A stretch of DNA of 64,000 nt. It comes from Candidatus Omnitrophota bacterium (lineage in GTDB: Bacteria > Omnitrophota > Gorgyraeia > JAGLLT01). The notes under the pieces were generated by a model. It saw nothing but the letters and a program-made list of their open reading frames with translations. It made no database searches and was not told the DNA's origin. The position numbers and the translations under genes were made by a program. Positions 4,774-37,016 of the stretch are shown here, in pieces; within the stretch, counting starts at the first letter, position 1, and each line of letters opens with the position of its first letter. The stretch lies in contig JAGLLT010000002.1 of NCBI GenBank assembly GCA_023140385.1, forward strand, positions 24,295-88,294. The letters are read 5' to 3'.

Positions 4774-6303
4774 GTGGCCATGACACTGCTATATAACATA
4801 TTTATTACTTTATTTATTGCCGGTATTGGTTTTTTAATACAGATATACCCCAGAATATATAATCGCTATTTTGGAGTTGATACATGGAAACTAATGGAAA
4901 TGGCTGATATTATTAGAAAGCACGGCAAACTCCCCAAGACAATGACCGACAAGTACTTAATTGATGGGCCCTTTGATTATCCGCCGGTGTTTTTATATAT
5001 ACTTTCTTTTTTTAAAAAAGATTTCCTGGAAAAAAATCAATGGTGGATTTCACCTTTTATAAGCGCCTTACACGGTATAATAGTTTTTGTTATTACCTAT
5101 TTTCTGACTCGTAATTTATTAATTGCTTCAATGGCTCAGTTGGTTTATTGTTTAACCCCAATAATTATTATCGAAAGTTCCCAACTTTCTGTTAGGACGT
5201 TTAGCCAGCTGATTTTTTCACTTACTCTTTTTACAATGCTTTTATCTGTCCATTATCAAAAACCATCACTTTTTTTATTAACCCTTTTTATGTCGGTTAT
5301 TTTAATATTATCTCATAAGTTTGCTTTGCAGGCTTTAATTTTCTTGTGCGTTGTTTTGTTCATTTGGAGTTTTAATTTTATATATATTAGCATACCTTTC
5401 TTGGCTGTTTTAATCGCGATTGTGATTTCAAAGGGATATTATTTAACCGTATTAAAGGGACATTTAGCTATATTAAATTTTTGGAGAGAAAATATAGATT
5501 ACAGGTTTGCTCATCAAATACGAGGAGTTAAAAGTAAGCAAAATAAAAACCCGGATTTTATAAATAAAGTTTGTAATTTACTGCAGAAAGTTCCTCTTCT
5601 ATCATTATTTGGTTCAAATCCATTTGTTTTTTTGCTGTTCTTAATGTTTCTTTTAATTGGAAAGACTACCGCTTTAGGTTTTGTTAATGTTTCCTCGACG
5701 GTTTATGATTTTCTTTTTGTGTGGTCCATTGGTCTTGTAGCAGCGGCAGTCTTTGTTAGTTTAATCAAACCCATAAGATTTCTTGGTGAAGCGGAAAGGT
5801 ATTTGGAATATTCAGCAGTTCCCACAGCGATTTTATTAGCTATTCTTTTTAATGGAGGTTTAAAAAGTCAAAATGGCTTAATTTATGGCGCGTTGTTTAT
5901 AGTTTGTGCGGTTGCTCTGGCGTATATACCGACTTTGTTAATTCAAAGGAGCCTGGTTTTAAAAGACGAGGAAAGGAGTATTCGTAAAGACCTATGGGAG
6001 ATGATGGATTATATTAATAACTTAGGTGAAAATGTGCGGATAGCTACTATACCGTTATATTTAATTTCGCCGGTATCATATTTTGTCAATTGTAAGATCC
6101 TTTCAACGGAGAGCGCTTTAGCTCACCCAGAGAAATTGAAAGACTTTTGTCCGATTTTAAGAAAACCGCTGGAGGACATTTTCGATAGCTATCAAATTAA
6201 TTATTTGCTTGTTAATAATCACTACGTATCAATAGAGGAGTTACCGCTGAAAAGAAAAAATATAGCCAAACATATAGGACAGTATTATTTACTTAAAGTA
6301 TAA
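4774..6303 (+). CDS. Polytopic membrane protein, putative GT-C (ArnT/PMT_2-like) glycosyltransferase; paralog of 14114-15640
   Basis: About 10-12 hydrophobic helices. The first loop 'YFGVDTWKLMEMADIIRK...GPFDYPPVF' resembles the ArnT/PMT_2 'DExRYAEI...KPP' region. 'AHQIRG' and 'GEAERYLEYSAVP' are shared with the paralog. The start is ambiguous (GTG 4774 or ATG 4780). Confidence 0.5.
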   Translation: MAMTLLYNIFITLFIAGIGFLIQIYPRIYNRYFGVDTWKLMEMADIIRKHGKLPKTMTDKYLIDGPFDYPPVFLYILSFFKKDFLEKNQWWISPFISALHGIIVFVITYFLTRNLLIASMAQLVYCLTPIIIIESSQLSVRTFSQLIFSLTLFTMLLSVHYQKPSLFLLTLFMSVILILSHKFALQALIFLCVVLFIWSFNFIYISIPFLAVLIAIVISKGYYLTVLKGHLAILNFWRENIDYRFAHQIRGVKSKQNKNPDFINKVCNLLQKVPLLSLFGSNPFVFLLFLMFLLIGKTTALGFVNVSSTVYDFLFVWSIGLVAAAVFVSLIKPIRFLGEAERYLEYSAVPTAILLAILFNGGLKSQNGLIYGALFIVCAVALAYIPTLLIQRSLVLKDEERSIRKDLWEMMDYINNLGENVRIATIPLYLISPVSYFVNCKILSTESALAHPEKLKDFCPILRKPLEDIFDSYQINYLLVNNHYVSIEELPLKRKNIAKHIGQYYLLKV

Positions 6304-6337
6304 CTTTATAATTGTACAAATAAGCTAAGGGGAAAAA

Positions 6338-7432
6338 ATGAGAATAGCGTATCCGGATTTATGTTTCGATGAGGTTTTAGATTTAAAGAAAGCCATTAAT
6401 TCAGGCTGGCTGACTAAGGGGCCGTATGTTGAAGAATTTGAAAATATGGCAAAGGATTATATAGGGGTTAAGTACGCGATTGCCGTGAATTCAGGCACGG
6501 CTGCTCTTCATTTAGCACTGATATCTCTAAATATATCAGATGGTGATGAGGTGATAGTGCCTGATTTTACTTTTGTGGCGACAGCCAACGCCGTTGAATA
6601 CACACGGGCAAAACCAGTATTCGCGGATATTGATTTAAAAACCTTTAATATAGATACAGAGGATATAAAGAGAAAAATAACGAATCGAACAAAGGCAATT
6701 ATGCCTGTTCATGGGCTTGGGCAGTCTGCCGATATGGATGAAATTAGAAAAATAGCAAGAGAGCGCAATCTATTTATTATTGAGGACGCTGCCTGCGCGA
6801 TGGGGGCAAAGTATAAAGGAGAATTTTGCGGGACTATGGGTGATTTGGGTTGTTTTAGTTTTCATCCGAGAAAAATAATTACCACCGCTGAGGGCGGCAT
6901 GATCATAACCAACAATGAGAAACATGCAAAAGCAATAGAGAGACTGCGTGATCACGGAAGCATAAAGAAGGACGGCAGAGTTTACTTTTACAATTGCGGT
7001 TACAATTATAGACTAAGTGAACTGCATTCAATCTTAGGAATCGCGCAGATGAAAAAATTAAAGAGTATAATAGCGCGAAGACAAGAAGCGGCAAAAAAAT
7101 TGAATACCTTGCTTTCAGGTATTGATTTTTTGCGGATTCCCGAAACGCGTAAGGATTGTGAACACATATTTCAATCATACGTTGTATTGCTCGACAGTGG
7201 ATCTGATAGAGATAAATTCATGACGTATTTAAAAAGCAAAAACATAGAAACAGTGGGTGGTAATCACGCGCTTCATAGCCAACCTTTTTATAAGAATAAA
7301 TACGGCTATAAGCCCGGCGAGGTTCCTAATTCATTTGAGGCAGGTGAAAGGAGCGCGGCTTTACCTCTTTATCCGCAAATGACCGATGAGGAAATAAATT
7401 TTCTTGCTCAGACGGTAAGAGGCGCTTTATAA
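6338..7432 (+). CDS. DegT/DnrJ/EryC1/StrS-family PLP-dependent sugar aminotransferase (ArnB-like)
   Basis: 'NSGWLTKGP', 'AIAVNSGTAALHLAL' and 'DLGCFSFHPRKIITTAEGGMIITNN' (Lys-containing PLP motif) are typical of UDP-4-keto-sugar aminotransferases. Confidence 0.9.
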   Translation: MRIAYPDLCFDEVLDLKKAINSGWLTKGPYVEEFENMAKDYIGVKYAIAVNSGTAALHLALISLNISDGDEVIVPDFTFVATANAVEYTRAKPVFADIDLKTFNIDTEDIKRKITNRTKAIMPVHGLGQSADMDEIRKIARERNLFIIEDAACAMGAKYKGEFCGTMGDLGCFSFHPRKIITTAEGGMIITNNEKHAKAIERLRDHGSIKKDGRVYFYNCGYNYRLSELHSILGIAQMKKLKSIIARRQEAAKKLNTLLSGIDFLRIPETRKDCEHIFQSYVVLLDSGSDRDKFMTYLKSKNIETVGGNHALHSQPFYKNKYGYKPGEVPNSFEAGERSAALPLYPQMTDEEINFLAQTVRGAL

Positions 7433-7446
7433 AGTGAAATAATGAA

Positions 7447-8430
7447 ATGGATAAGATAAGCTGTAATCTTTGTAATTCAAATAGATATACAAAAGTATAC
7501 GACATTAAGAACAGTGATACTAAAGAAACCTTTAATTTGGTAAAATGCTCTGATTGTCGATTAATTTATATTAATCCCCAGCCCTCACATGAGGAGTTAA
7601 GCAAATACTATTTTAGAGATGAATATTATTCATATGGAGAGGTCCTAAAAGAAGACCAAGGCCGGCTTAATTTCATTGAGAAAATTAAAAGAGTATTCAG
7701 AAAGCGGATATTTTTGACCTATGGAGTAAATAATCGTAGTGTTTTTCAAAAATTTAAGCAAATTCTTTTTTACCCTTTTAAAAGAAGATTCGGTGGAATT
7801 CCGGCATTTTTAAAAAATGGGAAAATATTGGATATTGGCTGTGGAGACGGCTTGTTTATAAGCCAGCTTAAAAGTATAGGTTGGCATGTTTGTGGTATAG
7901 AAATTGATCAAGAAGCCGTCAAAAGGGCGCAGAATCATGGTTTTGAGGTTTATCGCGGTAGATTTGAAGATTTTGATTTTAAGGATGAACGCTATGATGT
8001 CGCACGTTTATGGCATGTCTTGGAACATTTTAAAGACCCTTATTTTAATCTAAAAAAAATATATGGAATTTTAAAACCGGGGGGACGGGTAATATTAGGC
8101 GTACCCAATATGAATTCTTTATATAGCAAAATCTTTAAGCAAAATTGGACCGGACTCGATGTGCCGCGGCACTTATACCATTTTTCTCCACAAACAATAA
8201 AAGAAATATTAAAGCAAAGTGGTTTTTCAGAGATAAAGATATCGTATAATTCTGTGGGTACCGGTTTAGCCAGTTTGGTTTATGTGATGAATAGGAAAAT
8301 CAAAAATGAGGCGCTTGTAAATTTAGTTTTTAATAATGTTGTTTTTAGATTTGTTTCTATTTTTGTTGATGCTTTGCTTGACATGTTTAGAGTTGGTGGA
8401 TGTTTAGAAGTTAGAGCTATGAAAGAGTAA
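7447..8430 (+). CDS. Class I SAM-dependent methyltransferase with N-terminal Cys4 zinc ribbon
   Basis: 'CNLCNS...CSDCRL' is a zinc ribbon. 'ILDIGCGDGLF' is SAM motif I. 'LKPGGRVILGVPN' is the post-II region. Confidence 0.8.
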   Translation: MDKISCNLCNSNRYTKVYDIKNSDTKETFNLVKCSDCRLIYINPQPSHEELSKYYFRDEYYSYGEVLKEDQGRLNFIEKIKRVFRKRIFLTYGVNNRSVFQKFKQILFYPFKRRFGGIPAFLKNGKILDIGCGDGLFISQLKSIGWHVCGIEIDQEAVKRAQNHGFEVYRGRFEDFDFKDERYDVARLWHVLEHFKDPYFNLKKIYGILKPGGRVILGVPNMNSLYSKIFKQNWTGLDVPRHLYHFSPQTIKEILKQSGFSEIKISYNSVGTGLASLVYVMNRKIKNEALVNLVFNNVVFRFVSIFVDALLDMFRVGGCLEVRAMKE

Positions 8431-8436
8431 AATTAT

Positions 8437-11400
8437 ATGAATAGCAATATTGAAAAGAAAACCGATTTATTGCGGGATTTAGGTATAATTTTTTTATTAA
8501 GCCTTGTGCCCCTGATTTGGTTCAAAGGCGGAATAGCGGTGGCTGGTTCAGACGCTGTTTATCCGCTGTACAATCCCATCCAGTTTTATACAGCACGCTT
8601 TTTTATGTGGGATTCCCGCTATGGCGCCGGTATGCCATCTTCTATATACGCTACAAGTTTATTTTATTATTTGCCTCAGGTTATTTGCAATTTTTTCGGT
8701 ATGTCAGCAATCGCATCGCAAAAGATTCTTTTTGTTTTTTGGTTTTTTATGATGGGAGCGGCCATTTATTACATGGTTGCTGTTATTCAGGTAAAAGCGA
8801 ATCGCCTGCAAAGATTAATTGCTGTTTGTTTTTATACCTTTAATCCGCTGGTATTTAATATTTGGGAAGCGGGAAAAGCTGCCAATATTTCAGCTTATGT
8901 TGCTATGCCGGTAATATTAGCCTTTATAATTAAGGGATTAAGAAAAGATATAAGTTACTTTAAGGCTGCTATTTACATAGGACTATTTTCATTATTAGTG
9001 TCTGAAATGGGAGCCAGCCCTCCTATTTTTGCTATTCCTCTTTTGTTAATTACGTCTTACGCGATTTTCTATAGTATAAATAAACTGCTTTCAAAGAATG
9101 CGTTCAAAGACATAGGCAAAGCTATAAGCTTTTTTGTATTAATCATCTTGATTTTTGCGGGCCTAAACGCTTTTTGGTGGTTACCGTATTTGCGTGAAAT
9201 TTTTGTAAGGCTGATTGCCAGCGCGGAATCCGGGTTAGGGGCATTCAATTTGACTAACTGGCTTAAGGGTATAAGCACCCACACCTCTATTTTAAATGTT
9301 TCTCGTTTTCAGGGGGCGTGGGATTGGTACTATAATGCCAGAGATAATGTTCCTTATGTTCCTTATGCCAAAGTGTATTTTACTAATCCTTTTTTTATCT
9401 TTTGGAGCGTATTAATTCCCGCGACGGCTTATGCTGCGATTATTGTTAAAAAGAAATTTCATGAAGTTTTTTTTGTTGTTTTATGTGTAGTAGCCACGGT
9501 TTTAGGCTGCGGCGCTCATATGCCCACGGGTAAATTTTATTTGTGGATGACTGAAAATGTACCTTTTTTTCAGGTATTTAGAAGTCCGTACTATAAATTC
9601 GCGTTAATAATTTCCCTGGCATACGCGTATTTAATAAGTGTTACTTTGGCGTATGTGTATAAGAAAGTGAAAAACTCTTGCGAAAGAATCTTTTCGCGGC
9701 AAAAAAAGTATCTTATTAGGATAATACCCCCAACAGTAATAGTAATAATTTTATGCGGTAATTTTGTCTATAACTATCCAATGTTAAACGGACAGGTTAT
9801 TAGAATAAGAGAACCTGAAACATCTTTTTCTGTTGGCATAAAAGTTCCGGCTTATATAATTAATTTTGTCAAATACATGGATAGTCAAAAAAATGATTAT
9901 CGCGTTATCGCGTTGCCATCTTTACCGCTAAACGGATATAGATGGGGATATGTGGGGCCGCCGCATTTGCTCACCTTACTTTCATCAAGATCTATCCTGA
10001 GTGGTAGTGGTGGCGCTTCATATGCTGATAAGCTAAAAAATGTTTATTATAACGCGCTTTATGACAAAACTACACCATTAACTGCTCAAATATTAAAGGT
10101 TTTAAATGTAAAGTATATTTTAGTTCATAATGACGCCTGGTATGATTTCTTTAATTTCAAACTTTCTCCCGCTTTTCTGAAAAGTGCTTTATCTTATCAA
10201 GGAAAAATTGATTTATTAGGTAGTTTTGGAAAGTGGCAATTATATCAAAATCAGGATGATCCGGTTTATATTGGGGGAGCATTCGGTTTAGCTATGTTAG
10301 TCGGCGAGATGTCAGCTTTTGCTCCGTTAAGTTATATTAATGTTATGAATGACTTGCCCGTTATTTTATCCAGTCAAAAAATAAATCATGCTTTCATTAA
10401 AGAGGAACTTGATAGAGGAATTGAGAAAGTTTTCTTTTATAATGCTGATTTTTCTGATTTTGTATTTAATTTTATAGAGCCCGAACATAAAATTACTATA
10501 CTAAGTAACGATATACATAGTAATAACGGACTTATATTTAATTTTGAGGTAAGCATCGACGGTTTGTATCAAGTATGGATTGAACGGGATATATGCAGTA
10601 TATATAACCGCAATTTTAATGTAAAAATTGATGGACAAGCCGGGCAGGCCGGAAAGGATCTAATTCAGGACGATTTTTCTTTGAAATGGATTAACATCGC
10701 GAATTTTAATACAAAAAAAGGAAAACGCGTTATTGAACTAGGTTTAACCAATCAGGAAAAGAACTTGCTCGGAAATAAGGATATTAATTTAATTATATTG
10801 CCCAAATCTACTTTTGATACCTATAATGATTTATACCGTAATTTATTATTGACTTGCTTAAAAAGAAAAGGTAAAGGTTTGACATATTTTTTGTCATCAG
10901 AAAAAATGCAATCAGAGGTCAGATCCGAAGGTACTCAATGGAGCGGTGAATGCGATAGTCCAAAGTTAAGTAATGTTTTTAACTTTAAAAAAGATCCGGG
11001 AGAAGAGAAATGGAACTGGTTAATATTAGATAACGAAAAAACCATTAGTATAAGTAATAAAAGCAATGAAGAAGTTGTTACTAATGTTAAATTTGACGTA
11101 TTTTCATATGAAATAGATAGATATTTATATTACTATGTAAACGATATATATTTGTCAATGTGTTTTCTGCCGAAAGATAAGGCTCGTACAATAATTTTAA
11201 GGGGTATTAAATTAAAACCGGGTGATAATTATATTTCATTTTATTCTCCCGATAGAGGAAGTCGTAAATATGGAAGAAGTGTATCGTGCGCTTTTAAAGA
11301 TGTGGCTATAGGCAATGAATATTATAAAAGTGGCGTGTATATACCGAAATCGGGTGGTTACAATATTAGAATTTACCCTTATGATGACTTAGTTAGTGAA

Positions 11401-11952
11401 AACATTCAAACAAAGAATAAAAAGGTTTGTTTAGATGAAAAAGAAATATCATTTGGACTGAGAAATTTAAATGGTGTTAATTATTACGCGCATGAAAGCA
11501 TTTTTTTATCTGAAGGTTCGCATAATATTAACTTTAGGCAGATGAATATGGGTAAATGTTATCTTGAAATATCATCAAAAGTTAAGAATCAAGAATTTTT
11601 ACATCCTCTTAAGTACAAAAAAATTAATCAAACCAAATACAATGTTTCATGCGATAAAGATGAAATATCTTTTTTGTTTTTTCATGAAGCTTTTAACTCA
11701 CAATGGGAAGCACATATTATTAATCATGAATCAGGTAAAAAGTCTAAACTTAAACCCCATTTTATAATCGATGGCTACGCGAATGGATGGAAGGTTGACG
11801 GACCCGAGTATAAAAAAGGCTCAACTATAGTAATTAACTATAAGATACAAAACTTATTTTATTTAGGCCTATGTATTTCACTTGTTACTCTTGTTATATC
11901 TTTATCTTACCTATATTATAATTGCAAAAAGAAGGGACGTTGTAAAAAATGA
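8437..11952 (+). CDS. Giant (1171 aa) polytopic membrane protein, putative YfhO/GT-C-type extracytoplasmic glycosyltransferase (paralog family member 1)
   Basis: N-terminal ~13 TM helices with 'PLIWFK', 'SAIASQKILFVFWFF', 'NVSRFQGAWDWYY' and 'RSPYYKF'. A ~600-aa hydrophilic domain follows. The C-terminal 'FHEAFNSQWEA...DGYANGWKVDG' is followed by a final TM anchor. Four paralogs share these motifs. Confidence 0.55.
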   Translation: MNSNIEKKTDLLRDLGIIFLLSLVPLIWFKGGIAVAGSDAVYPLYNPIQFYTARFFMWDSRYGAGMPSSIYATSLFYYLPQVICNFFGMSAIASQKILFVFWFFMMGAAIYYMVAVIQVKANRLQRLIAVCFYTFNPLVFNIWEAGKAANISAYVAMPVILAFIIKGLRKDISYFKAAIYIGLFSLLVSEMGASPPIFAIPLLLITSYAIFYSINKLLSKNAFKDIGKAISFFVLIILIFAGLNAFWWLPYLREIFVRLIASAESGLGAFNLTNWLKGISTHTSILNVSRFQGAWDWYYNARDNVPYVPYAKVYFTNPFFIFWSVLIPATAYAAIIVKKKFHEVFFVVLCVVATVLGCGAHMPTGKFYLWMTENVPFFQVFRSPYYKFALIISLAYAYLISVTLAYVYKKVKNSCERIFSRQKKYLIRIIPPTVIVIILCGNFVYNYPMLNGQVIRIREPETSFSVGIKVPAYIINFVKYMDSQKNDYRVIALPSLPLNGYRWGYVGPPHLLTLLSSRSILSGSGGASYADKLKNVYYNALYDKTTPLTAQILKVLNVKYILVHNDAWYDFFNFKLSPAFLKSALSYQGKIDLLGSFGKWQLYQNQDDPVYIGGAFGLAMLVGEMSAFAPLSYINVMNDLPVILSSQKINHAFIKEELDRGIEKVFFYNADFSDFVFNFIEPEHKITILSNDIHSNNGLIFNFEVSIDGLYQVWIERDICSIYNRNFNVKIDGQAGQAGKDLIQDDFSLKWINIANFNTKKGKRVIELGLTNQEKNLLGNKDINLIILPKSTFDTYNDLYRNLLLTCLKRKGKGLTYFLSSEKMQSEVRSEGTQWSGECDSPKLSNVFNFKKDPGEEKWNWLILDNEKTISISNKSNEEVVTNVKFDVFSYEIDRYLYYYVNDIYLSMCFLPKDKARTIILRGIKLKPGDNYISFYSPDRGSRKYGRSVSCAFKDVAIGNEYYKSGVYIPKSGGYNIRIYPYDDLVSENIQTKNKKVCLDEKEISFGLRNLNGVNYYAHESIFLSEGSHNINFRQMNMGKCYLEISSKVKNQEFLHPLKYKKINQTKYNVSCDKDEISFLFFHEAFNSQWEAHIINHESGKKSKLKPHFIIDGYANGWKVDGPEYKKGSTIVINYKIQNLFYLGLCISLVTLVISLSYLYYNCKKKGRCKK

Positions 11953-13406
11953 AGATAATGATTTCATATCCGCCGATACCGAATGCTAAAGGAATACCTA
12001 TGCTTGGCCAGAACAGGCAGTTTCAATATTTTCACAATCCATCTTATATATACCCTATGGTACCCGCTTCCGCGGCTACTTTATTGCAGAGTCAAGGTTA
12101 TAAAGTTATCTGGAATGACTGTATTGCTAAAAGCATATCCTACGAACAGTTTATTGATATTTTTAAAAAGGAAAATTCCGATTTAATCGCGATTGAAACA
12201 AAGACACCGGTAGTAAAAAAGCATTACGCTATAGTAGATGAATTAAAAAAAATCAATCCAAAATGTATAGTTGTCCTGATGGGTGATCATATAACCGCGT
12301 TTCCGGATGAAGCTATGAACAGCTGTAGGGTTGATTACTGCATAACGGGTGGAGATTACGATTTTCTATTATTGAATATTTGCAAGTATATTGAAAATAA
12401 AAATTTACTTGAAAAGGGGATTTGGCATAGAGATGGAAAGCAAGTTGTTAATACAGGTAAATTTGAATTGAATCACGATTTGAATACATTACCCTTTATA
12501 GACAGGGAATTGACTCAGTGGAGTGATTATGGAGAGAAGCTTTATAAAGGAACCCCGTTTACCTATACAATGGTAGGCCGTGATTGCCCCTGGGCTAAAT
12601 GCACATTTTGTTCATGGACGACTCTTTTTCCGAAATTTAGGACACGTACTCCTAAAAGTCTTTTGGATGAAATTGGTTTTTTGATTGAACGTTACGGCAT
12701 AAAAGAGATATTTGATGATACCGGAACCTTTCCTTCGGGAAAATGGTTGGAAACTTTTGCTCAGGGTATGATTGAGAGAGGCTATAATAATAAAATATAT
12801 TTATCGTGTAATTTTAGATTTGATTATTTAACTCCGCAAAGAGCGGCACTAATGAAACAGGCGGGCTTTAGACTTATGAAGCTTGGGTTGGAGTCGGCGA
12901 GTGACGAAACTCTAAAACGCTTAAATAAAGGAAGCCGCGTTGATGATATAATAAATGGCTGCAAAATAGCCAAAAAAGCTGGCCTGACGGTTCATCTTAC
13001 TATGATGGTTGGCTATCCCTGGGAAACAAAGGAAGATATGTTAAAAACATTTAAATTAGCCAGGTATCTTATGCTAAACGGTTATGCCGATATGCTGCAG
13101 TCAACGACAGTAACAGCATATCCTGGTACTCCTTTATATGATCAGGCCTTGAAGAATGACTGGCTTAGGGTAGACCCGCGTGATTACGAAAGATTTGATA
13201 TGGGTGAGCCGGTATTCAAAAATCCAAATATCAAACCTGAAGAGATAACGCGAATTTGCAATCAAATATACAAGATTTTTTTGCATCCCAAATTTATATT
13301 TAATCATCTTAAAAAAGTTAGATCATTTGAAGATATTACCTATTTACTGAGAGGCGTAAAGCCGGTGCTGGGGCATATCAGAGATTTTATGAAAATAAGG
13401 AGATAA
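11949..13406 (+). CDS. B12-binding-domain radical SAM enzyme (class B), atypical Cx4Cx2C cluster motif
   Basis: N-terminal Rossmann-like B12-binding region ('YPMVPASAATLLQSQGYKVIWNDC'). The cluster motif is 'CPWAKCTFC'. The 'LGLESASDETL' region is radical SAM-like. There is a 4-nt overlap with the upstream giant gene. Confidence 0.75.
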   Translation: MKIMISYPPIPNAKGIPMLGQNRQFQYFHNPSYIYPMVPASAATLLQSQGYKVIWNDCIAKSISYEQFIDIFKKENSDLIAIETKTPVVKKHYAIVDELKKINPKCIVVLMGDHITAFPDEAMNSCRVDYCITGGDYDFLLLNICKYIENKNLLEKGIWHRDGKQVVNTGKFELNHDLNTLPFIDRELTQWSDYGEKLYKGTPFTYTMVGRDCPWAKCTFCSWTTLFPKFRTRTPKSLLDEIGFLIERYGIKEIFDDTGTFPSGKWLETFAQGMIERGYNNKIYLSCNFRFDYLTPQRAALMKQAGFRLMKLGLESASDETLKRLNKGSRVDDIINGCKIAKKAGLTVHLTMMVGYPWETKEDMLKTFKLARYLMLNGYADMLQSTTVTAYPGTPLYDQALKNDWLRVDPRDYERFDMGEPVFKNPNIKPEEITRICNQIYKIFLHPKFIFNHLKKVRSFEDITYLLRGVKPVLGHIRDFMKIRR

Positions 13407-13409
13407 TTT

Positions 13410-14102
13410 ATGCCGCGAATGAAATATTTGGATAATTTTGAAAAAACTGAACCCGACTTATTTCATAGTATTATCTTTGATTTTACTAAAGATCGCATAA
13501 AAGGTAAAAAAAGTTTAAATATCGGCTGTTGGACGGGAGGCTATGAGCAGATAGCAGATGAAAAAATAGATAATTTGTTTATGGCGAGTGTGGATATAGA
13601 TCATAAGGCTTTATGTACAGCCAAAGAAAATGTAAGAAATGTAAATTTTGTTGAAGCCGACACAGTAAGCTTACCGTTTAAAGATGAAACCTTTGATGTT
13701 GTTATGATGTTTTATGTAATTGAACACTTACCTTTAGAAAAAGAGAGAGAAATATTAAAGGAGATAAGTAGAGTAATTAAAACAGGCGGCGAATTTATAT
13801 GCGTAACCCATAATCATCAGTGGTTTGGCAATCTTTTTGATATTGCGTATTGGACGACAGGACATAGGCATTATAAAAAAAGTTATCTTGAAGAAATTTT
13901 AGAAAATTCAGGCATGAAAATTGACTTTTACGAACTGAGGGGAGGCATAATTTCTTCAATTTCTCCAATCTTTTTTTATCTCTTTAAGTACTGTTTTAAA
14001 AAAAACATATACAGGGATTCTAATTTTGTAAAAAGACTTTTAACTAATGAATTTAAGAAAAAAGGCTTTAGAGATATTTTTTTAATCGCGAAGAAAAAAT
14101 AA
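13410..14102 (+). CDS. Class I SAM-dependent methyltransferase
   Basis: 'LNIGCWTGGY' is motif I. 'FDVVMMFYVIEHL' and 'IKTGGEFICVTHN' follow. Confidence 0.8.
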   Translation: MPRMKYLDNFEKTEPDLFHSIIFDFTKDRIKGKKSLNIGCWTGGYEQIADEKIDNLFMASVDIDHKALCTAKENVRNVNFVEADTVSLPFKDETFDVVMMFYVIEHLPLEKEREILKEISRVIKTGGEFICVTHNHQWFGNLFDIAYWTTGHRHYKKSYLEEILENSGMKIDFYELRGGIISSISPIFFYLFKYCFKKNIYRDSNFVKRLLTNEFKKKGFRDIFLIAKKK

Positions 14103-14113
14103 AGGTTTAATTT

Positions 14114-15640
14114 ATGCTTAAAGATTATCTTATCGCGTTAGTTACCGCTTTGATCGGCCTATTTATACAAATAAGGCCCCGGCTTAGCAACCGGTATTTT
14201 GGTATTGATACATGGAGGCACTTATCGGTCGCTGACTATATAAGGAAGAATAAAAAATATCCAAAGTTAATGCCTGAACATTACCTTATTAATAAGCCTT
14301 CTGATTATCCTCCGTTTTTCCGTTTTTTATTAGCCTTGTTTCCAAAAAAAATGCTGGAAAAATATCAGTGGTTTGTTTCACCGCTCTTTGATTTCGCGCA
14401 CAATTTATTCCTTTTTAGTGTAGTTTATTGTTTTACGGGTAATTTTCTTATTTCGTTTTTTGCTCAAATAACCTATATGTTAAGTCCTATAGTTGTTATG
14501 GAAAATTCGAATCTGACAACTCGTTCCTTTGCTTCGCTGTTATTCAGCGGGTCTTTCTTTTCCCTTATCTGCTACACTACATTCGGAAATTATTTTTACT
14601 TGTTGATATCGGTTTTTCTCTTAACGATATTGTTATTGTCCCATCGGATGTCTATTCAGGCAATTTTTTTCCTTCTTGTAATTTTTTCACTAATTGAATA
14701 TAATTTCACATACATAGCCGTGTTAGCGGCTTCTATTATAATAGCCGCTCTTATCTCAAGAGGTTTTTATTTAAAAGTTCTTAAAGGGCACTTGGCTATG
14801 ATTAGATTCTGGTTCATGCATATTGATAATAGATACGCCCATCAGATAAGAGGATCTTTAGCAAAAGATCAAAAAAACCCCGATGCGGTCTTCAGAATAT
14901 ATCAGCTTGTCCAAAATATACCCTTCATAGCTGTTTTCGCCGCGAATCCTTTTATTATATTTGTTCTCGCGTATCTATATTTTGACAAAATCAAGTTTTA
15001 TAATTTAAATACATTCGGTATTCCGCAAATGCTATTTTCGAAATTTGTTATTTGGAGTATTTTGTTGTTTGTAATCGGTGTAATAGTCAGACAGATAAAA
15101 AAGTTAGGCTGTATTGGAGAAGGCGAGAGGTATCTGGAATATTCAGCGTTTCCCATAGCGATCGTTACGGCTGTATTTATTATAAATGGACTGACAAGAG
15201 GCCAATGGGGAATATTTTTAACGTTTTTGATTGTAGCTGTATTTGGAGCGCTGCTGCCAACGCTCTTTATACAACAGCAAGTTATAGTTAAAGATTCTAA
15301 GCGCTCTGTTAATAGCGATTTAAGAGGAATTTTCGATTATATAAATTGTATACAAGGTAAGGTGAACATTATGACGATACCTTTATATCTTGCTGATGCC
15401 GCGACATATTTTACTTCTGCCAGACTGCTTACAACCGACAATTCTATAGCCCACATAGTTGATTATAGCGATTTTTTTCCGGTTTTAAAAAAGCCCTTAA
15501 GTGAAGTTTTTAAAAGATATGATATAAATTATCTTTTTATTAATCAGGAGTATGTTAAACTATCTGAATTAAGTTTGCCTAAAAATAAAATAGTAAAAGA
15601 AAGTGGTTCCTATTGCTTAATTAAGGTACTATGTAAGTAG
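14114..15640 (+). CDS. Polytopic membrane protein, putative GT-C (ArnT/PMT_2-like) glycosyltransferase; paralog of 4774-6303
   Basis: Same architecture and motifs as 4774-6303 ('YFGIDTWRHLSVADYIRK...PSDYPPFF', 'AHQIRG', 'GEGERYLEYSAFP'). Confidence 0.5.
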   Translation: MLKDYLIALVTALIGLFIQIRPRLSNRYFGIDTWRHLSVADYIRKNKKYPKLMPEHYLINKPSDYPPFFRFLLALFPKKMLEKYQWFVSPLFDFAHNLFLFSVVYCFTGNFLISFFAQITYMLSPIVVMENSNLTTRSFASLLFSGSFFSLICYTTFGNYFYLLISVFLLTILLLSHRMSIQAIFFLLVIFSLIEYNFTYIAVLAASIIIAALISRGFYLKVLKGHLAMIRFWFMHIDNRYAHQIRGSLAKDQKNPDAVFRIYQLVQNIPFIAVFAANPFIIFVLAYLYFDKIKFYNLNTFGIPQMLFSKFVIWSILLFVIGVIVRQIKKLGCIGEGERYLEYSAFPIAIVTAVFIINGLTRGQWGIFLTFLIVAVFGALLPTLFIQQQVIVKDSKRSVNSDLRGIFDYINCIQGKVNIMTIPLYLADAATYFTSARLLTTDNSIAHIVDYSDFFPVLKKPLSEVFKRYDINYLFINQEYVKLSELSLPKNKIVKESGSYCLIKVLCK

Positions 15641-15672
15641 TTAAAATATAACAAGGCAGGCGGAGGAGTTAA

Positions 15673-16638
15673 ATGGCAAGAATATTGATTACAGGCGGAG
15701 CTGGTTTTTTAGGTTCATATTTGTGCGAAAAACTGTTAAAAAAAAGTAATAGTGTTATTGCCCTTGATATGTCAGACGGTTCAAAGGTAGAGCATCTTAT
15801 GGATAAGAAGGGTTTTCAATTCATTCAGGGCTCTGTTTTAGATAAAGACTTAATGGAAAGGGAGGTTTCTAAGGCAGATATGGTTTTTCATTTTGCGGCT
15901 ATTGCCGATCCAAAACGCTATATTCAGGAGCCATTAACCGTACTTGAGATAGATTTGCAGGCATCTTTAAATATTTTTAAAACGGCTGCCATGCATAAAA
16001 CAAAAGTTGTCTTTGCCTCAACCTCTGAATTATACGGGCGAAATCCCAATATACCCTGGAAAGAAGATGATGAGAGGGTTCTGGGTTCAACAGCTATAAA
16101 CAGATGGTGTTATTCTACGGCTAAGGCTGCTTCCGAGCATTACCTTTATGCTTACAATCAGCAAGAAGGTTTACCTTTTGTAGTGGTTAGGTTCTTTAAT
16201 GCTTACGGCCCCAGGTTGGATGATCTGGGCTCAGGACGTGTTATTCCTATATTCTTAAAGCAATTTTTAATGAATGAACCTATTACAATTCATGGAGACG
16301 GATCCCAGACCAGGACATTTATATATGTTGATGACGCGGTTGACGCGGTATTAAAAGTCGCGTTCTGTAAAAAGGCGGAGCAAGAAGCTTTTAATATTGG
16401 CTGTACGGATGAAATGTCCGTGTTAAATATTGCTAAGGTAATAAAAAAAGTAGGTAAATTTAATTCGAAATTCAAATTTATTCCGCATAAAAAAGTTTTT
16501 GGAAGTAAATATGAAGATATACCGCGAAGAGTGCCAAGCATAAATAAAATTAAAAGTTATTGCAATTGGCAGCCATCGACTTCTTTGGAAGACGGCTTAA
16601 TGAAGACTATTGAATATTATAGGAAAAAGGTTATTTAG
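15673..16638 (+). CDS. Extended SDR, ArnA C-terminal-domain/UXS-like UDP-glucuronate 4-oxidase/decarboxylase
   Basis: 'ILITGGAGFLGSYL' is the NAD motif. 'FHFAAIADPKRYIQEPL...VFASTSELYG' and 'RWCYSTAKAASE...RFFNAYGPRLDDL' closely parallel the ArnA dehydrogenase domain ('LVAIATPIEY...STSEVYG', 'RWIYSVSKQL...RPFNWMGPRLDNL'). Confidence 0.8.
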   Translation: MARILITGGAGFLGSYLCEKLLKKSNSVIALDMSDGSKVEHLMDKKGFQFIQGSVLDKDLMEREVSKADMVFHFAAIADPKRYIQEPLTVLEIDLQASLNIFKTAAMHKTKVVFASTSELYGRNPNIPWKEDDERVLGSTAINRWCYSTAKAASEHYLYAYNQQEGLPFVVVRFFNAYGPRLDDLGSGRVIPIFLKQFLMNEPITIHGDGSQTRTFIYVDDAVDAVLKVAFCKKAEQEAFNIGCTDEMSVLNIAKVIKKVGKFNSKFKFIPHKKVFGSKYEDIPRRVPSINKIKSYCNWQPSTSLEDGLMKTIEYYRKKVI

Positions 16639-16643
16639 GCGGC

Positions 16644-17654
16644 ATGAATATCGTCGAAATAGATAATTCAACTTTAAAAAAGCTCTCTCCGCTTTTAAAT
16701 AAATATAAGTTCAAAAATTTTTATAGTTGCGGGGAGATTTTGAACGAAGAGAAAGTAGATTATTTTCTGCGCAAGCTTTCAAAAATTAAAAAAAATGGCA
16801 GAATTATAGCCATAGAAATAAAAGATAAAATTCGAGCATTTGGGTGGATAGAACTTTCCGATTGGGACACCAGGCATTTTGGATTTAAAATGGCCAAGGC
16901 TGGTTTAGTTAGCCAATCGGGATATTCAGATGATAAGAAATATGCGTCTATTTTATTAAATGAAATAGAAATGTATTGTATTGGCCAACAAATAAAACAT
17001 ATTACTATACGTTTACCCTTAAATCAGATATCTTTGATACACGCGGCGGAGGAGAATGATTACTTATTAATGGCTCAAGCAAATGCTTATATCAAGAGTC
17101 TAAGGAATTATGCGATAGAAACTTGCAATTCAAGTATAAGGTTGAGATTTTGTCAGCCCGCAGATTTAAAAAAATTACGTGAAATTACAGAAAAGTCATT
17201 CCGGCCGCGAAGTGGATGGTTTGACAGGTTTCATAATGATCCCATGCTTTCAGATGAGAAAGCCGATCTTCTCTATAAAGAATGGATAAACAATTGCTAT
17301 AAAAATTATTTGAAAAAAGCGAATAATAAAATTATTGTTGCGACTTATAAAGCTAAAGTGGTTGGATATTTAAGCGGTGAATTAGATTCGGAAGCTACTA
17401 AGTCATTTGGGAAAAAAGTAGCATATATAACCTTAAATGCGGTTGATGAAGCATATCGCCGGCGTGGAATTTACGGTTTATTGGTTCAAGAAGTTCTTAA
17501 CTGGTTTAAGGAAAAAAATGTAGACTTAGTTCATATTCTTACTCAGAGCGGGACTATTGGAGTTCAAAAAGTATGGATAAAGCAAAAAGACGTATCTTCT
17601 GAAACGCAATGTGTCTATCATAAATATTTAGGAAAAACTAACCGAAAAATATAA
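16644..17654 (+). CDS. Putative GNAT-fold N-acyltransferase (duplicated domain), likely amino-sugar N-acetyltransferase
   Basis: C-terminal 'AYRRRGIYGLLVQEVLNWF' matches GNAT motif A (R/Q-x-x-G-x-G/A). At ~336 aa the protein could hold two acyl-CoA N-acyltransferase-like halves. Confidence 0.5.
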   Translation: MNIVEIDNSTLKKLSPLLNKYKFKNFYSCGEILNEEKVDYFLRKLSKIKKNGRIIAIEIKDKIRAFGWIELSDWDTRHFGFKMAKAGLVSQSGYSDDKKYASILLNEIEMYCIGQQIKHITIRLPLNQISLIHAAEENDYLLMAQANAYIKSLRNYAIETCNSSIRLRFCQPADLKKLREITEKSFRPRSGWFDRFHNDPMLSDEKADLLYKEWINNCYKNYLKKANNKIIVATYKAKVVGYLSGELDSEATKSFGKKVAYITLNAVDEAYRRRGIYGLLVQEVLNWFKEKNVDLVHILTQSGTIGVQKVWIKQKDVSSETQCVYHKYLGKTNRKI

Positions 17655-17716
17655 AGTTTATAACTGCAAAAGAAAAACCAGCCAAAATTGTAAAAATAGA
17701 AAATAGGGAGGCCTTT

Positions 17717-18664
17717 ATGACTAATAAACTTTATTTATCAGTGGTCATACCGGTATATAATGAGAAAGATAGCATTAGGCTGCTTTATGAGAAGTTGAAG
17801 AGTTCGCTATCAAATTTTAAGGATTACGAAATAATATTTATTGACGATGGCAGCAAAGATAACAGTTTTGAAGTAATAAAGCAAATAGCTATTAATGACA
17901 AAAGAGTAAAAGCTATTCAGCTAAAAAAGAATTTTGGCCAAACCATAGCTATTTCAGCCGGTTTTGATCATGCCGGAGGCAAAGTCATAGTTACTATGGA
18001 CGCGGATTTACAAAATGATCCGGAGGATATTCCAAAACTTATAACTAAATTGGAAGAGGGGTATGATGTTGTAAGTGGTTGGAGGAAAACTAGAAAAGAT
18101 CCGCTTAGTAAAAGAATGCCTTCCAGAGTAGCTAATAAAATTATTTCTTTAGTTACGGGAATTAAACTGCATGATTTTGGTTGTACATTAAAGGCGTATA
18201 GGAGTGAAATAATTAAAAATCTTAAGCTTTATGGAGAGATGCATAGATTCCTGCCGGCTTACGCGCAGTGGGCGGGAGCCAAAATCGCGGAAGTTGAAGT
18301 TAAACATCATCCTCGTTCATATGGACAAACAAAATATGGGCTTGCCAGAACCCCATCAGTAATTATCGATCTAATAACTACAAAGTTTTTAATCGCGTTT
18401 TCTACCAAGCCGAGTCATATTTTTGGTGCATTAGGCTTGATATTGATATTAACGGCAATGCTATTAAGTTTATTTATTACGATAAGGAAATTTTGTTTTG
18501 GCGGTGAATGGGTGAGTCCGCTTATATTTATTATAACCATATGCTTTATAACAGGAATTCAGTTCATCCTCATGGGGCTCTTGGGGGAGATATCCATTAG
18601 AACATATCATGAGTCTCAAAATAAATCTCCCTATTTAATTTCCCAATTTATTAATAAGGATTAA
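17717..18664 (+). CDS. GT2 polyprenyl-phosphate sugar synthase (GtrB/ArnC/CsbB-like) with C-terminal TM helices
   Basis: 'LSVVIPVYNEKDSI', 'IDDGSKDNS' and 'TMDADLQNDPEDI' are GT2 signatures. Two C-terminal TM helices are typical of the family. RBS 'agggagg' lies upstream. Confidence 0.85.
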   Translation: MTNKLYLSVVIPVYNEKDSIRLLYEKLKSSLSNFKDYEIIFIDDGSKDNSFEVIKQIAINDKRVKAIQLKKNFGQTIAISAGFDHAGGKVIVTMDADLQNDPEDIPKLITKLEEGYDVVSGWRKTRKDPLSKRMPSRVANKIISLVTGIKLHDFGCTLKAYRSEIIKNLKLYGEMHRFLPAYAQWAGAKIAEVEVKHHPRSYGQTKYGLARTPSVIIDLITTKFLIAFSTKPSHIFGALGLILILTAMLLSLFITIRKFCFGGEWVSPLIFIITICFITGIQFILMGLLGEISIRTYHESQNKSPYLISQFINKD

Positions 18665-18672: not shown

Positions 18673-20559
18673 ATGTGCGGAATTTCCGGTGTCGTTTATA
18701 GCCAGCCAAAAAGTCATTCAGATAAACAATTGCTAAAAAGCATGAGCGATTCCTTGTTGCATAGGGGGCCGGACGATGAAGGTATTTACGAGGATCAACT
18801 GGCAGGCTTATCTTTTAGAAGACTTAGCATAATTAGTTTAGATAATGGTCATCAGCCTCTTCATAATGAAGACGAAACTATCTGGGCAATATGTAACGGT
18901 GAAATTTATAATTATAGAGACCTGAAAAAAGATTTATCAAAAAGAAACCATAAATTTTATAGTGATTCAGATTGCGAAGTTATACCGCATTTATATGAAG
19001 AGTACGGAGAAAATTTCGTTGAGAAGTTAAACGGAATGTTTGCCCTGGCTATATGGGATAAGAAAGCTGGAAAATTAATTTTGGCCAGAGATAGAATGGG
19101 CCAAAAACCTCTTTATTACTCTTGTTTTAATGGGAAAATAATGTTCGCGTCTGAACTAAAAGCTTTGCTAAGATGCCCTGAAATCGGTAAGGAAATAAAT
19201 TTTGATTCATTGAATAAATATCTCACCTTTGAATATATACCAGCTCCAAATACCATATTTAAACAAATTAAGAAAATTTTGCCGGCTGAATTATTGATAT
19301 ATGAAAACGGCAGAATTAGTTTGAAAAATTACTGGCGGATTAATTACTCTTCAAAGAGTAAAATTTCAGAGCAAGAAGCTATCGTTGAAGTTAGAAGCAA
19401 ATTGATAGAAGCGGTAAGCAGAAGATTGATAAGCGACGCGCCCTTAGGCGCTTTTTTAAGCGGGGGTATAGATTCCGGTCTTATTGTTTCTTTGATGACG
19501 CAACTGAGTAATGAAAAAGTTAAATGTTTTAGTATTGGTTTTGATGAAAGGTCTTTTAATGAACTTGAATATGCCAAAATACTTTCAAAAAAGCTTAATG
19601 TTGAGCACTTGTACTTGAATATTAAAGCCAAAGATATGCTTGAATTGATACCGCAGATAACGTCCTTTCTGGATGAGCCGTTAGCTGACGCGTCAATCAT
19701 CCCCACGTATTTATTATCAAAATTTACCAGAAGACATGTCAAAGTGGCACTTTCAGGAGATGGGGGAGACGAATTATTCGCGGGCTATCCAACGTATAAC
19801 GCTCACAAGATAGCAAGATATTATAAACTTTGTCCTAAAAAAATTAGGAAGAACGTAATAGATAGATTGATAAATAAATTACCTGTTTCAACATCAAATA
19901 TAAGCCTGGATTTTAAACTCAAAAAGTTTATTTCAGTTATGGATTATGATCAGTATAAAAGGCACTATCTATGGTTGGGATCTTTTCAACCGCCGGAAAA
20001 AGATAAGCTGCTAAGCGATGGAGTAAAAAATGAGATAAATAATAAAAACGAATTTGAAGAAATTGATATGTATTTACGAGATTTCAAAAGCCCAAACCCA
20101 TTAGAAAATATTCTCTATCTGGATAGTAAATTGTATTTACAGGATGATATTTTAACAAAGGTTGATAGGGCAAGCATGGCCAACTCTTTAGAGGTTAGGT
20201 CACCATTCTTGGATCATACATTTGTTGAGTATGTAACTTCTTTACCTATGAGTTTGAAGTTAAAGGGCTACACCAATAAATATATATTAAAGAAAATGGC
20301 AGGGGAATATCTGCCAAAATGTATAATCAATAGGCCCAAAAAGGGATTTGGCCTTCCATTAGCTATGTGGTTCAAAAATGATTTAAAAAGTTTTGTATTA
20401 GATGTTTTAAGGCCGTCTAAAATTAATAGCCAAGGTTATTTTAACGCGAATTATGTACAGGAGTTACTAAACCAACACTTTAGCGGCAAAAAAGATAATC
20501 GTAAATTAATTTGGACATTGCTAGTTTTTCAGATGTGGTTTGATAAATACCTAAACTAA
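18673..20559 (+). CDS. Asparagine synthetase B-family glutamine amidotransferase (Ntn Cys2; PP-loop 'SGGIDS')
   Basis: N-terminal 'MCGISGV' is the Ntn nucleophile. 'FLSGGIDSGLIVSLM' is the ATP pyrophosphatase motif. Confidence 0.85.
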   Translation: MCGISGVVYSQPKSHSDKQLLKSMSDSLLHRGPDDEGIYEDQLAGLSFRRLSIISLDNGHQPLHNEDETIWAICNGEIYNYRDLKKDLSKRNHKFYSDSDCEVIPHLYEEYGENFVEKLNGMFALAIWDKKAGKLILARDRMGQKPLYYSCFNGKIMFASELKALLRCPEIGKEINFDSLNKYLTFEYIPAPNTIFKQIKKILPAELLIYENGRISLKNYWRINYSSKSKISEQEAIVEVRSKLIEAVSRRLISDAPLGAFLSGGIDSGLIVSLMTQLSNEKVKCFSIGFDERSFNELEYAKILSKKLNVEHLYLNIKAKDMLELIPQITSFLDEPLADASIIPTYLLSKFTRRHVKVALSGDGGDELFAGYPTYNAHKIARYYKLCPKKIRKNVIDRLINKLPVSTSNISLDFKLKKFISVMDYDQYKRHYLWLGSFQPPEKDKLLSDGVKNEINNKNEFEEIDMYLRDFKSPNPLENILYLDSKLYLQDDILTKVDRASMANSLEVRSPFLDHTFVEYVTSLPMSLKLKGYTNKYILKKMAGEYLPKCIINRPKKGFGLPLAMWFKNDLKSFVLDVLRPSKINSQGYFNANYVQELLNQHFSGKKDNRKLIWTLLVFQMWFDKYLN

Positions 20560-21995: not shown

Positions 21996-22010
21996 AATCA
22001 ATATTTTAAA

Positions 22011-22742: not shown

Positions 22743-22753
22743 GTACGATATAT

Positions 22754-35838: not shown

Positions 35839-35850
35839 GGAGGGTAAGCT

Positions 35851-37014: not shown

Positions 37015-37016
37015 GC

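Follow-up and report, generated by a model that had tools for sequence, protein, structure and literature searches.

A candidate Arn-like, lipid-carrier-mediated glycosylation module with an orphan GT-C membrane protein family in Omnitrophota

Results

The stretch of DNA analysed here, hereafter the window, is 64,000 nucleotides long and comes from a Candidatus Omnitrophota bacterium (NCBI GenBank assembly GCA_023140385.1, contig JAGLLT010000002.1, positions 24,295 to 88,294 of the forward strand). We propose that an Arn-like, lipid-carrier-mediated glycosylation module lies within it, as part of a larger glycan-biosynthesis array, and we consider the full scheme to be, on balance, probable. 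In this scheme, a nucleotide-sugar 6-dehydrogenase encoded upstream of the window would make a UDP-uronic acid, which SDR1, a short-chain dehydrogenase/reductase (SDR), would oxidise at C4 and decarboxylate to a UDP-4-keto-pentose. A DegT-family aminotransferase (here DegT1, by default) would convert this product to a UDP-4-amino-4-deoxy-pentose, and a tandem GNAT would N-acylate the amine from acyl-CoA, which would make the transamination irreversible and give an amide as the substrate for the next enzyme. Acylation would then play the role that formylation has for ArnC. An ArnC-like GT2 would move the N-acyl-aminopentose to polyprenyl phosphate and, after flipping, the membrane protein M508B would pass the sugar to an extracytoplasmic acceptor, with its paralog M508A possibly doing the same for a second sugar. 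The likelihoods that we attach to this scheme and to its alternatives were each estimated roughly and separately, and their total need not be one.

The coordinates of the genes are collected in Table 1. Every open reading frame (ORF) named in an original prediction, which had been made from the DNA letters alone, was present on the plus strand where it had been placed, and the adjacencies that it described were recovered: one 508-aa protein is followed by the DegT aminotransferase, the other by the SDR, and the GNAT lies between the SDR and the ArnC-like gene. Only 5-62 nt separate neighbouring module ORFs, and the pathway genes are divided between two sub-modules 8 kb apart. The Pfam assignments were far beyond chance, with E-values of 2e-119 for DegT, 3e-56 for Epimerase/SDR, 2e-11 for GNAT and 4e-38 for GT2.

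The strongest evidence for the module is a conserved gene order in which an amino-sugar N-acyltransferase comes after a decarboxylase, both in association with a single GT-C family, and in which GNAT and formyltransferase replace each other or occur as a fusion, as the earlier hypothesis predicts. A pattern scan of one genome per species gave 32 loci encoding M508 relatives, from metagenome-assembled genomes (MAGs) of Omnitrophota, Chloroflexota, Actinomycetes, Nitrospinaceae, Nitrospirae, Patescibacteria/Levybacteria and Gammaproteobacteria. ORFs were called in the 10-kb flanks and compared with the window proteins. The genome locus closest to the window was L007, in an Omnitrophota MAG, with 78-82% amino-acid identity. 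In 13 loci, which represent four phyla, the gene immediately downstream of M508 was an ortholog of the SDR1 clade (48-82% identity), and the two genes often overlapped; in a fourteenth SDR1-bearing locus, L014, the ortholog was found 6 kb from M508. The next gene after SDR1 encoded an N-acyltransferase in 10 of these 14 loci, namely the 336-aa tandem GNAT in L007, L009, L017, L020 and L036 and a 406-aa GNAT in the Chloroflexota loci L011, L013, L015, L016 and L019. In L011 (Chloroflexota MAG CAYRCL010000054), a 721-aa Formyl_trans_N + Formyl_trans_C + GNAT fusion (10875-13037) is encoded directly downstream of the SDR1 ortholog and so combines two different N-acyltransferases in a single protein, and the best NCBIfam model of its formyltransferase part was the stand-alone Arn-type NF005414, then ArnA, ahead of fmt. 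An Arn-type formyltransferase is encoded directly upstream of M508 in L022, and a short formyltransferase domain just upstream of M508 in L014. The order SDR1-GNAT-DegT was found in L009 and L017, where the DegTs are ArnB-like. The idea that a GNAT stands in the place of the formyltransferase is thus independently backed by the orthologous loci, which have a GNAT, a formyltransferase-GNAT fusion or a formyltransferase there. In the distant loci (Levybacteria, Gammaproteobacteria), pairs of M508 genes lie next to a small GNAT and a DegT.

The core of M508, SDR1 and N-acyltransferase was also found in MAGs of Chloroflexota, Actinomycetes and, in a variant form, Patescibacteria. Some of the phyla that carry this core have no lipid A, which makes lipid A an improbable acceptor in general; most likely, the acceptor would be a surface glycan or protein.

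M508A and M508B are paralogs with 42% identity over the full length (E 1e-139), and M508A has an ortholog in L007 with 79% identity. Neither protein matched any Pfam or NCBIfam model, and 48 family members gave no relevant Pfam match even at E ≤ 1. No related chain was found among PDB sequences with a single sequence or with a family profile, and thus no GT-C chain, and a BLASTP comparison of M508B with ArnT gave an E-value of 2.6, which is noise. The 508-aa proteins had been likened to ArnT/PMT_2; in a hidden Markov model (HMM) check they showed no sequence relationship to GT83 or GT39, and what remained of the likeness was a GT-C fold in the predicted structure. The AlphaFold2 model of M508B, built from an alignment of 48 sequences, had a predicted local distance difference test score (pLDDT) of 94.1 and a predicted template-modelling score (pTM) of 0.92. 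When this model was compared with the PDB in Foldseek, ranks 1-39 were all GT-C enzymes, with E-values from 4e-7 and query-normalised template-modelling scores (TMq) up to 0.60, and they included STT3, AglB, PglB, DPY19, ArnT, AftA, ALG9, ALG12, PMT and Emb. Judged from the model, the kinship of M508 to GT-C enzymes is real at the fold level and the family is an orphan by sequence; the predicted fold shows no special affinity to ArnT or PMT. D32 is invariant in the 48 sequences, in the motif Y-F-G-x-D-x-W directly after the first transmembrane (TM) segment, TM1 (helix 2-25), and would be the catalytic acid, at the position where GT-C enzymes carry theirs. We propose M508B as the putative extracytoplasmic transferase of the lipid-linked sugar, and M508A probably serves a different amino sugar or a different acceptor. 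A HMMER scan of 1.84 billion cluster representatives gave 1,293 M508 matches at E ≤ 1e-10; these representatives, about 1,300, are clusters at 50% identity in public data.

The ArnC-like GT2 shares 36% of its residues with E. coli ArnC in an alignment of 310 aa (E 1e-72), in which its hydrophobic C-terminal stretch is matched to the transmembrane region of ArnC. Its DXD motif, DADLQN, is the same as in ArnC, where it is described as the metal-binding motif, and ArnC takes an N-acylated (formylated) sugar only (PMC12690121). ArnC was the top NCBIfam model at 244 bits, under the equivalog cutoff of 529, and PgfS scored 187. The protein is, by these sequence criteria, a polyprenyl-phosphate glycosyltransferase of the ArnC/GtrB/PgfS type, in agreement with its description as ArnC/GtrB-like in the original prediction. 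Its orthologs adjoin SDR1 in L007 (61%) and L014 (45%). For loci without an ArnC-like ortholog, a candidate lipid-loading enzyme is GT2a256, a putative second polyprenyl-phosphate sugar synthase, whose homologs lie no more than 10 kb from M508 in about 20 of the 32 loci.

The Campylobacter pgl locus (PglF/E/D and PglB) follows a similar logic, with an SDR, a DegT and an N-acetyltransferase that make an N-acetylated amino sugar and a GT-C encoded beside them. SDR1, DegT and GNAT could accordingly make only a soluble nucleotide sugar, an N-acyl-aminopentose, from which cytoplasmic Leloir glycosyltransferases would build a polyprenyl-diphosphate oligosaccharide for export by a Wzx-type flippase; M508 would then be a GT-C of the oligosaccharyltransferase, ligase or polymerase type, and the ArnC-like enzyme would serve other GT-Cs of the array. 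The top Foldseek matches of M508 were indeed catalytic subunits of oligosaccharyltransferases (STT3, AglB and PglB, TMq 0.5-0.6), with ArnT at 0.43, but the E-values among GT-C classes were too close to discriminate between donors. A Wzx-like protein was the commonest unlabelled neighbour of M508 (17 loci) and is also encoded just upstream of the window, and several GT2 and GT4 genes flank the module. In contrast to PglB, M508 has no large periplasmic domain and no WWDYG motif; its C-terminal domain is only about 110 aa and carries no WWDxG-type motif. SDR1 is a decarboxylase by its residues and not a 4,6-dehydratase, no phosphoglycosyl transferase (Bac_transf or MraY/WecA type) and no PglC-type initiating transferase were found among the window ORFs, and a synthase of the polyprenyl-monophosphate type is encoded two genes from M508B. 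We therefore regard a pgl-like pathway as unlikely.

The decarboxylation step of the Arn-like scheme depends on SDR1. SDR1 and 13 orthologs were aligned with MAFFT to ArnA, the Ralstonia UDP-4-keto-pentose synthase (U4kpxs), human UXS1 (hUXS1), two bacterial UXS-family proteins, the UDP-XylNAc synthase UXNAcS, RmlB and GalE/TviC-like SDRs. The UXNAcS sequence was rebuilt from the supplement of PMC5078965 and is, by inspection, a near-identical ortholog of the Bacillus cereus protein. The equivalents of T-S-E (T432, S433, E434), Y463, K467 and R619 (ArnA numbering) were kept in SDR1 and in all 13 orthologs. At the T-S-E position, epimerase-like SDRs carried S-S-A or S-S-S and RmlB carried T-D-E, and the catalytic residues ruled out SDR1 as a 4-epimerase. 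SDR1 also has an insertion, F-G-x-x-Y-x-D, that aligns with the 609-615 loop of ArnA and has no counterpart in the UXS clade. The position of ArnA Y398 is occupied by Tyr in SDR1, as in all the GlcA decarboxylases of the alignment, and by Thr in UXNAcS. This may be a weak hint that UDP-glucuronic acid (UDP-GlcA) is the substrate.

A neighbour-joining (NJ) tree of 29 sequences, with 300 bootstraps and split counting, recovered the SDR1 clade as monophyletic at 99%. The clade grouped with UXS in 0% and with UXNAcS in 0-2% of the bootstraps, and the decarboxylase super-clade that includes SDR1 excluded the GalE/TviC-like proteins at 84%. Phylogenetic placement had been suggested as a check on the SDR, and it put SDR1 in a clade of its own, apart from the epimerases and from UXS. 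A match on S. meliloti pSymB was tried as a UXS reference and set aside, as it carries S-S-E and is no clear reference for UXS. The top NCBIfam model of SDR1 was NF008872 (U4kpxs) at 221 bits, and the ArnA model gave 188 bits (cutoff 777). U4kpxs and ArnA were the top models for every member of the clade tested (182-221 and 162-188 bits, respectively). The same two models gave 130 and 130 bits for UXNAcS, 108 and 107 for hUXS1, 86 and 81 for a UXS-clade SDR encoded upstream of the window, and 692 and 473 for a true U4kpxs; a rhizobial UXS-family protein reached 116 bits with the U4kpxs model. Because of the residues, the NJ tree and the model scores, SDR1 is classified from its sequence as an NAD-dependent UDP-uronic acid C4-oxidase/decarboxylase, in a distinct clade that is nearest the ArnA dehydrogenase domain (ArnA-DH)/U4kpxs and scores below the equivalog cutoff. 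The sequence thus agrees with the earlier reading of the SDR as a decarboxylase of the UDP-uronate type, but "aligns closely" with ArnA was too strong a phrase at 28% identity.

The DNA upstream of the window (L039, 1-10000, with 9 kb before window position 1) was read from a matching 116-kb metagenome scaffold (ENA ERZ23498475 scaffold_43). About 5 kb upstream of the window and on the same strand, it encodes a 436-aa nucleotide-sugar 6-dehydrogenase (TIGR03026, 430 bits). The flanking genes code for two TviC/GalE-like SDRs and for the UXS-clade SDR, which grouped with UXS at 98% bootstrap in the NJ tree. The UDP-glucose 6-dehydrogenase gene ugd had been named as something that the pathway requires, and a genome with no UDP-GlcA source as a finding that would refute it. 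A uronate source is present on the scaffold, so that this refutation fails, but the dehydrogenase scored higher on UDP-ManNAc/UDP-GlcNAc dehydrogenase models than on Ugd models. The substrate of SDR1 could be UDP-GlcA or UDP-GlcNAcA. L039 also carries rmlA/B/D and a gene for a Wzx-like flippase, and its six SDR genes form two runs of three on either side of the 6-dehydrogenase gene. Therefore, the array begins upstream of the window. It is co-directional, reaches back at least 9 kb before the window and ends near position 49,300, where it gives way to the housekeeping genes udg, priA, fmt, gap, pgk, tpi and secG.

SDR1 might instead be a complete synthase that keeps its NADH and releases UDP-xylose, or UDP-XylNAc from UDP-GlcNAcA, so that M508 would move a plain pentose and the GNAT would act elsewhere. 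The highest identities of SDR1 were to characterised UXNAcS (40%) and to hUXS1 (36%), and its nearest annotated plasmid relatives are B. cereus proteins (40%) that adjoin a nucleotide-sugar dehydrogenase. In B. cereus, the UXNAcS ortholog is paired with a dehydrogenase to which the upstream 6-dehydrogenase has 43% identity, and in L010 and L012 the M508-SDR1 pair has no adjacent acyltransferase. SDR1 shares with UXNAcS, which works with a UDP-GlcNAc 6-dehydrogenase in Bacillus cereus/cytotoxicus, the T-S-E/Y/K/R residues and a C-terminal loop insertion. However, it differs from UXNAcS at positions 393, 394 and 398 (ArnA numbering), including the Tyr at 398 discussed above, and exceeds it by about 90 bits on the U4kpxs model; the U4kpxs/ArnA models favour SDR1 over UXS and UXNAcS by 50-100 bits, and the bootstraps separate it from both. 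UXNAcS loci have no GNAT, DegT or GT-C partner. In contrast, an N-acyltransferase after SDR1 in most SDR1-bearing loci, with ArnB-like DegTs in two, makes little sense for a non-amino pentose, and with this decarboxylase-N-acyltransferase pattern it is hard to reconcile that SDR1 makes plain UDP-xylose. Since a separate UXS-clade SDR is already encoded upstream, SDR1 is not simply the UXS. A complete synthase thus appears even harder to credit than the pgl-like pathway.

For the acylation step of the Arn-like scheme, we propose the tandem GNAT as a putative acyl-CoA N-acyltransferase of the nucleotide-linked 4-amino-pentose. Its acyl-CoA motif (R/Q-x-x-G-x-G/A) reads RRRGIYG, and its best NCBIfam model was WecD, a dTDP-4-amino-4,6-dideoxygalactose acyltransferase (43 bits, cutoff 219). 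The AlphaFold2 model of the protein was poor (pLDDT 60, built from the 4 close relatives that a word-indexed homolog search gave), and its Foldseek matches to tandem GNATs were weak, at TM scores of about 0.3. The absence of ArnA-N and ArnD, as foreseen from the DNA, was confirmed. The sole formyltransferase in the window is the housekeeping fmt (267 bits, cutoff 201.5), which was rejected as an ArnA-N surrogate because its score clears the fmt equivalog cutoff and its neighbours are housekeeping genes. In tblastn searches with the E. coli and Ralstonia proteins, no ArnD, ArnT, ArnE or ArnF was found at E ≤ 1e-3 in the window, the 9 kb upstream (L039) or the 32 loci. Among the neighbours of M508 in these loci, no conserved unlabelled family resembled a deacetylase. 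The N-acylation may therefore be stable, a reading that draws only on this negative deacylase evidence.

In the characterised lipid-carrier systems for amino sugars of this type, deacylation precedes transfer in every case known to us. Least probable among the alternatives is a variant of the Arn-like scheme in which a deacylase removes the N-acyl group after flipping to leave a free cationic amine on the surface, as in canonical Arn, Francisella NaxD and Bordetella LgmC: the ArnC system deacylates before transfer (PMC12690121) and window ORFs without a family assignment exist (33812-37014), but the searches above gave neither an ArnD homolog nor a conserved deacetylase-like family.

Several results weigh against the Arn-like scheme. 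DegT1 had been called ArnB-like, a label that did not survive: its NCBIfam scores were 309 bits for PseC, 291 for LegC and 266 for ArnB, all below cutoff (631 for ArnB), its identity to E. coli ArnB was 34-35%, and its orthologs pair with other SDRs, of a T-G-G type in L007 and SDR2 in L008 (L008/L018). DegT1 also lies 8 kb from SDR1. In the window and in L007, the ArnC-like gene takes the place that the ArnB-like DegT has in L009 and L017; for these two DegTs, ArnB was the top model (450 and 424 bits), and they are 44% identical to E. coli ArnB, compared with only 38% between the E. coli and Ralstonia ArnB. DegT1 is a candidate for the transaminating enzyme of the module only by default, as the one aminotransferase of the window that has no other assignment, and is the weakest link of the scheme. 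As for SDR1, its identity to E. coli ArnA was 28% over the whole dehydrogenase domain and 28-33% to ArnA/U4kpxs, lower than to UXNAcS and hUXS1, and a single-sequence PDB search gave 180 bits for human UXS1 and 150 for ArnA. The grouping of the SDR1 clade with ArnA/U4kpxs had a low bootstrap of 56%, and the score on NF008872 was under the cutoff of 294. The upstream 6-dehydrogenase reached 271, 227 and 223 bits with the equivalogs of UDP-ManNAc/UDP-GlcNAc dehydrogenases and 186 and 159 with those of UDP-glucose dehydrogenases. The substrate of the GNAT is drawn only from the context and the 43-bit match to WecD, orthologs of the ArnC-like gene accompany SDR1 in only two of 14 other loci, and the tblastn searches returned no flippase of the ArnE/F type.

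A second aminotransferase, DegT2, was considered as the partner of SDR1 and rejected, as it is part of a WbpB/D/E-type module (GFO/hexapeptide/DegT). This module (43167-46867) consists of a gene for a GFO/UDP-GlcNAc 3-dehydrogenase-like protein, a hexapeptide acetyltransferase and DegT2, in a WbpB/D/E-like logic, and then SDR2. SDR2 also has the decarboxylase-type T-S-E/Y/K/R residues, which, together with the module, suggests a second, different decarboxylated diamino sugar, to judge from the gene content.

Table 1. Positions and characteristics of genes discussed in the text (window coordinates)
Feature	Position	Strand	Description	Score
M508B	14114-15640	+	508-aa polytopic membrane protein; predicted GT-C fold, small C-terminal alpha/beta domain	
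SDR1	15673-16638	+	321 aa; Pfam extended SDR 'Epimerase'	191 bits
Tandem GNAT	16644-17654	+	336 aa; Pfam Acetyltransf_1 (PF00583)	44.8 bits (cutoff 20.7)
ArnC-like GT2	17717-18664	+	315 aa; Pfam GT2; GT-A domain and hydrophobic C-terminal stretch	131.5 bits
M508A	4774-6303	+	509 aa; second GT-C paralog, directly upstream of DegT1	
DegT1	6338-7432	+	364 aa; pyridoxal phosphate-dependent sugar aminotransferase; Pfam DegT	399 bits
GT2a256	112-882	+	Soluble DPM1-like GT2, DADLD motif	Best NCBIfam models PgfS 76, ArnC 72, PpgS 55 bits
AsnB-like glutamine amidotransferase	18673-20559	+	Pfam Asn_synthase; TIGR03108	344 bits; 617 bits, below cutoff
Carbamoyltransferase	25956-27608		NodU/CmcH type	
DegT2	44766-45902		Aminotransferase of the WbpB/D/E-type module	
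fmt	53594-54538		Housekeeping formyltransferase	267 bits
Giant membrane proteins	8437-11952, 22655-25834, 27608-30712, 30687-33815		Four paralogs of 1034-1171 aa	
Radical SAM/methyltransferase pairs	11949-14102, 20571-22742		Two pairs	
Consecutive ORFs	33812-38798		367, 308, 387 and 593 aa	

Other genes of the array point to further modifications. Ten of the 14 loci with SDR1 carry the AsnB-like gene; uronate amidation as its role would be a guess. In L020 and L036 the carbamoyltransferase gene adjoins SDR1/GNAT, and in L014 it is found shortly upstream of SDR1. Together, the two genes give a hint of amidated and carbamoylated sugars. In L017 (Actinomycetes MAG JAJCYG010000065), a gene for a UbiA-family prenyltransferase (11463-12404) lies between the M508 and SDR1 orthologs and is reminiscent of the decaprenyl-phosphate phosphoribosyltransferase on which the GT-C arabinosyltransferases of mycobacteria depend for their donor.

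Over the full length, the four giant membrane proteins share 27-32% identity. Each begins with about 9 TM segments, continues with a domain of about 550 aa outside the membrane and ends in a TM anchor; Pfam gave only weak matches, to GT-C_AftD. Homologs of the giants accompany M508 in loci of Chloroflexota, Actinomycetes and Nitrospinaceae. The four consecutive ORFs had no Pfam or NCBIfam match and no homolog in the 32 loci; the last of them (37017-38798) encodes a 593-aa protein with about 8 TM segments, which could be another GT-C-like enzyme. The four giants, the two M508 proteins and perhaps this one would make up to seven GT-C-type proteins in the array. Each of the two radical SAM pairs combines a B12-binding radical S-adenosylmethionine (SAM) enzyme with a class I SAM methyltransferase, and many loci keep an ortholog of rSAM485, with 50-73% identity, beside M508. 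When compared with the gene calls on the same scaffold, the ORF starts at 22655-22753, 20571-20621 and 4774-4779 were probably too far upstream. The scaffold calls give a giant protein of 1026 aa that starts at about 22754 and does not overlap 22011-22742, a radical SAM protein of 457 or 474 aa, and an M508A of 507 aa.

Discussion

Arn (PmrHFIJKLM), which modifies lipid A with L-Ara4N, is regarded as a lipid A-specific polymyxin-resistance device of Proteobacteria and is described from E. coli and Salmonella and, with a split ArnA, from Ralstonia and Burkholderia. The Omnitrophota module resembles it in having a uronate decarboxylase nearest ArnA-DH/U4kpxs, a DegT, a proposed N-acylation before lipid loading, an ArnC-type GT2 and a putative transferase of GT-C fold that would act outside the membrane. 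It differs in that a tandem GNAT stands instead of the formyltransferase, no homolog of ArnD, ArnE/F or ArnT was found in the regions searched, and the GT-C has no sequence link to GT83. In addition, all module components score below the Arn equivalog cutoffs, and the genes are spread over two sub-modules. In short, the module would work like Arn but fails most tests of Arn membership.

Analogues of Arn that use N-acetylhexosamines are FlmF2/NaxD/FlmK in Francisella (GalN), LgmA/B/C in Bordetella (GlcN) and PpgS/Rv3779 in Mycobacterium (GalN on arabinogalactan). They share with the module an ArnC/DPM1-like GT2 that loads an N-acetylated amino sugar on polyprenyl phosphate and a GT-C that transfers it outside, and the acyl group there is acetyl and not formyl. 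However, these systems start from UDP-HexNAc, need no decarboxylase, aminotransferase or GNAT and have a deacetylase, whereas here the pentose would be made de novo and no deacetylase was found.

The most original element is the orphan GT-C family. Tentatively, and with more reserve than for the scheme as a whole, we suggest that M508 founds an undescribed GT-C family that moves amino sugars N-acylated with acetyl or formyl from a lipid carrier to surface acceptors other than lipid A, in monoderm and diderm uncultivated phyla. Its core partner would be the new ArnA-like decarboxylase clade, and its product an N-acyl-4-amino-4-deoxy-pentose. No report of an N-acetylated Ara4N-type sugar (Ara4NAc, 4-acetamido-4-deoxy-arabinose), of an Omnitrophota GT-C or of the M508 family was found in the literature, the coverage of which was incomplete, so that this is no proof of novelty.

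What the analysis shows are the families of the enzymes, their catalytic residues, the GT-C fold and a gene order that is conserved; the substrates, the release of the 4-keto product, the nature and retention of the acyl group, the choice of DegT and the acceptor are inferred. The value of the finding is moderate, since the organisms are uncultivated, every step is read from sequence and gene context, and a scheme of this general kind was known before. If it is true, the chemical logic of Arn, in which a UDP-uronate is decarboxylated, aminated, N-acylated, loaded on polyprenyl phosphate and transferred by a GT-C, would run in Omnitrophota, Chloroflexota, Actinomycetes, Nitrospinaceae and, in a variant form, Patescibacteria, and N-acylation of the acetyl type and of the formyl type would be interchangeable. 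The loci with a GNAT, a formyltransferase-GNAT fusion or a formyltransferase would form a natural series in which to ask why N-acylation precedes lipid loading. The scheme would also open a way to the function of about 1,300 orphan clusters of membrane proteins and would predict a new surface sugar.

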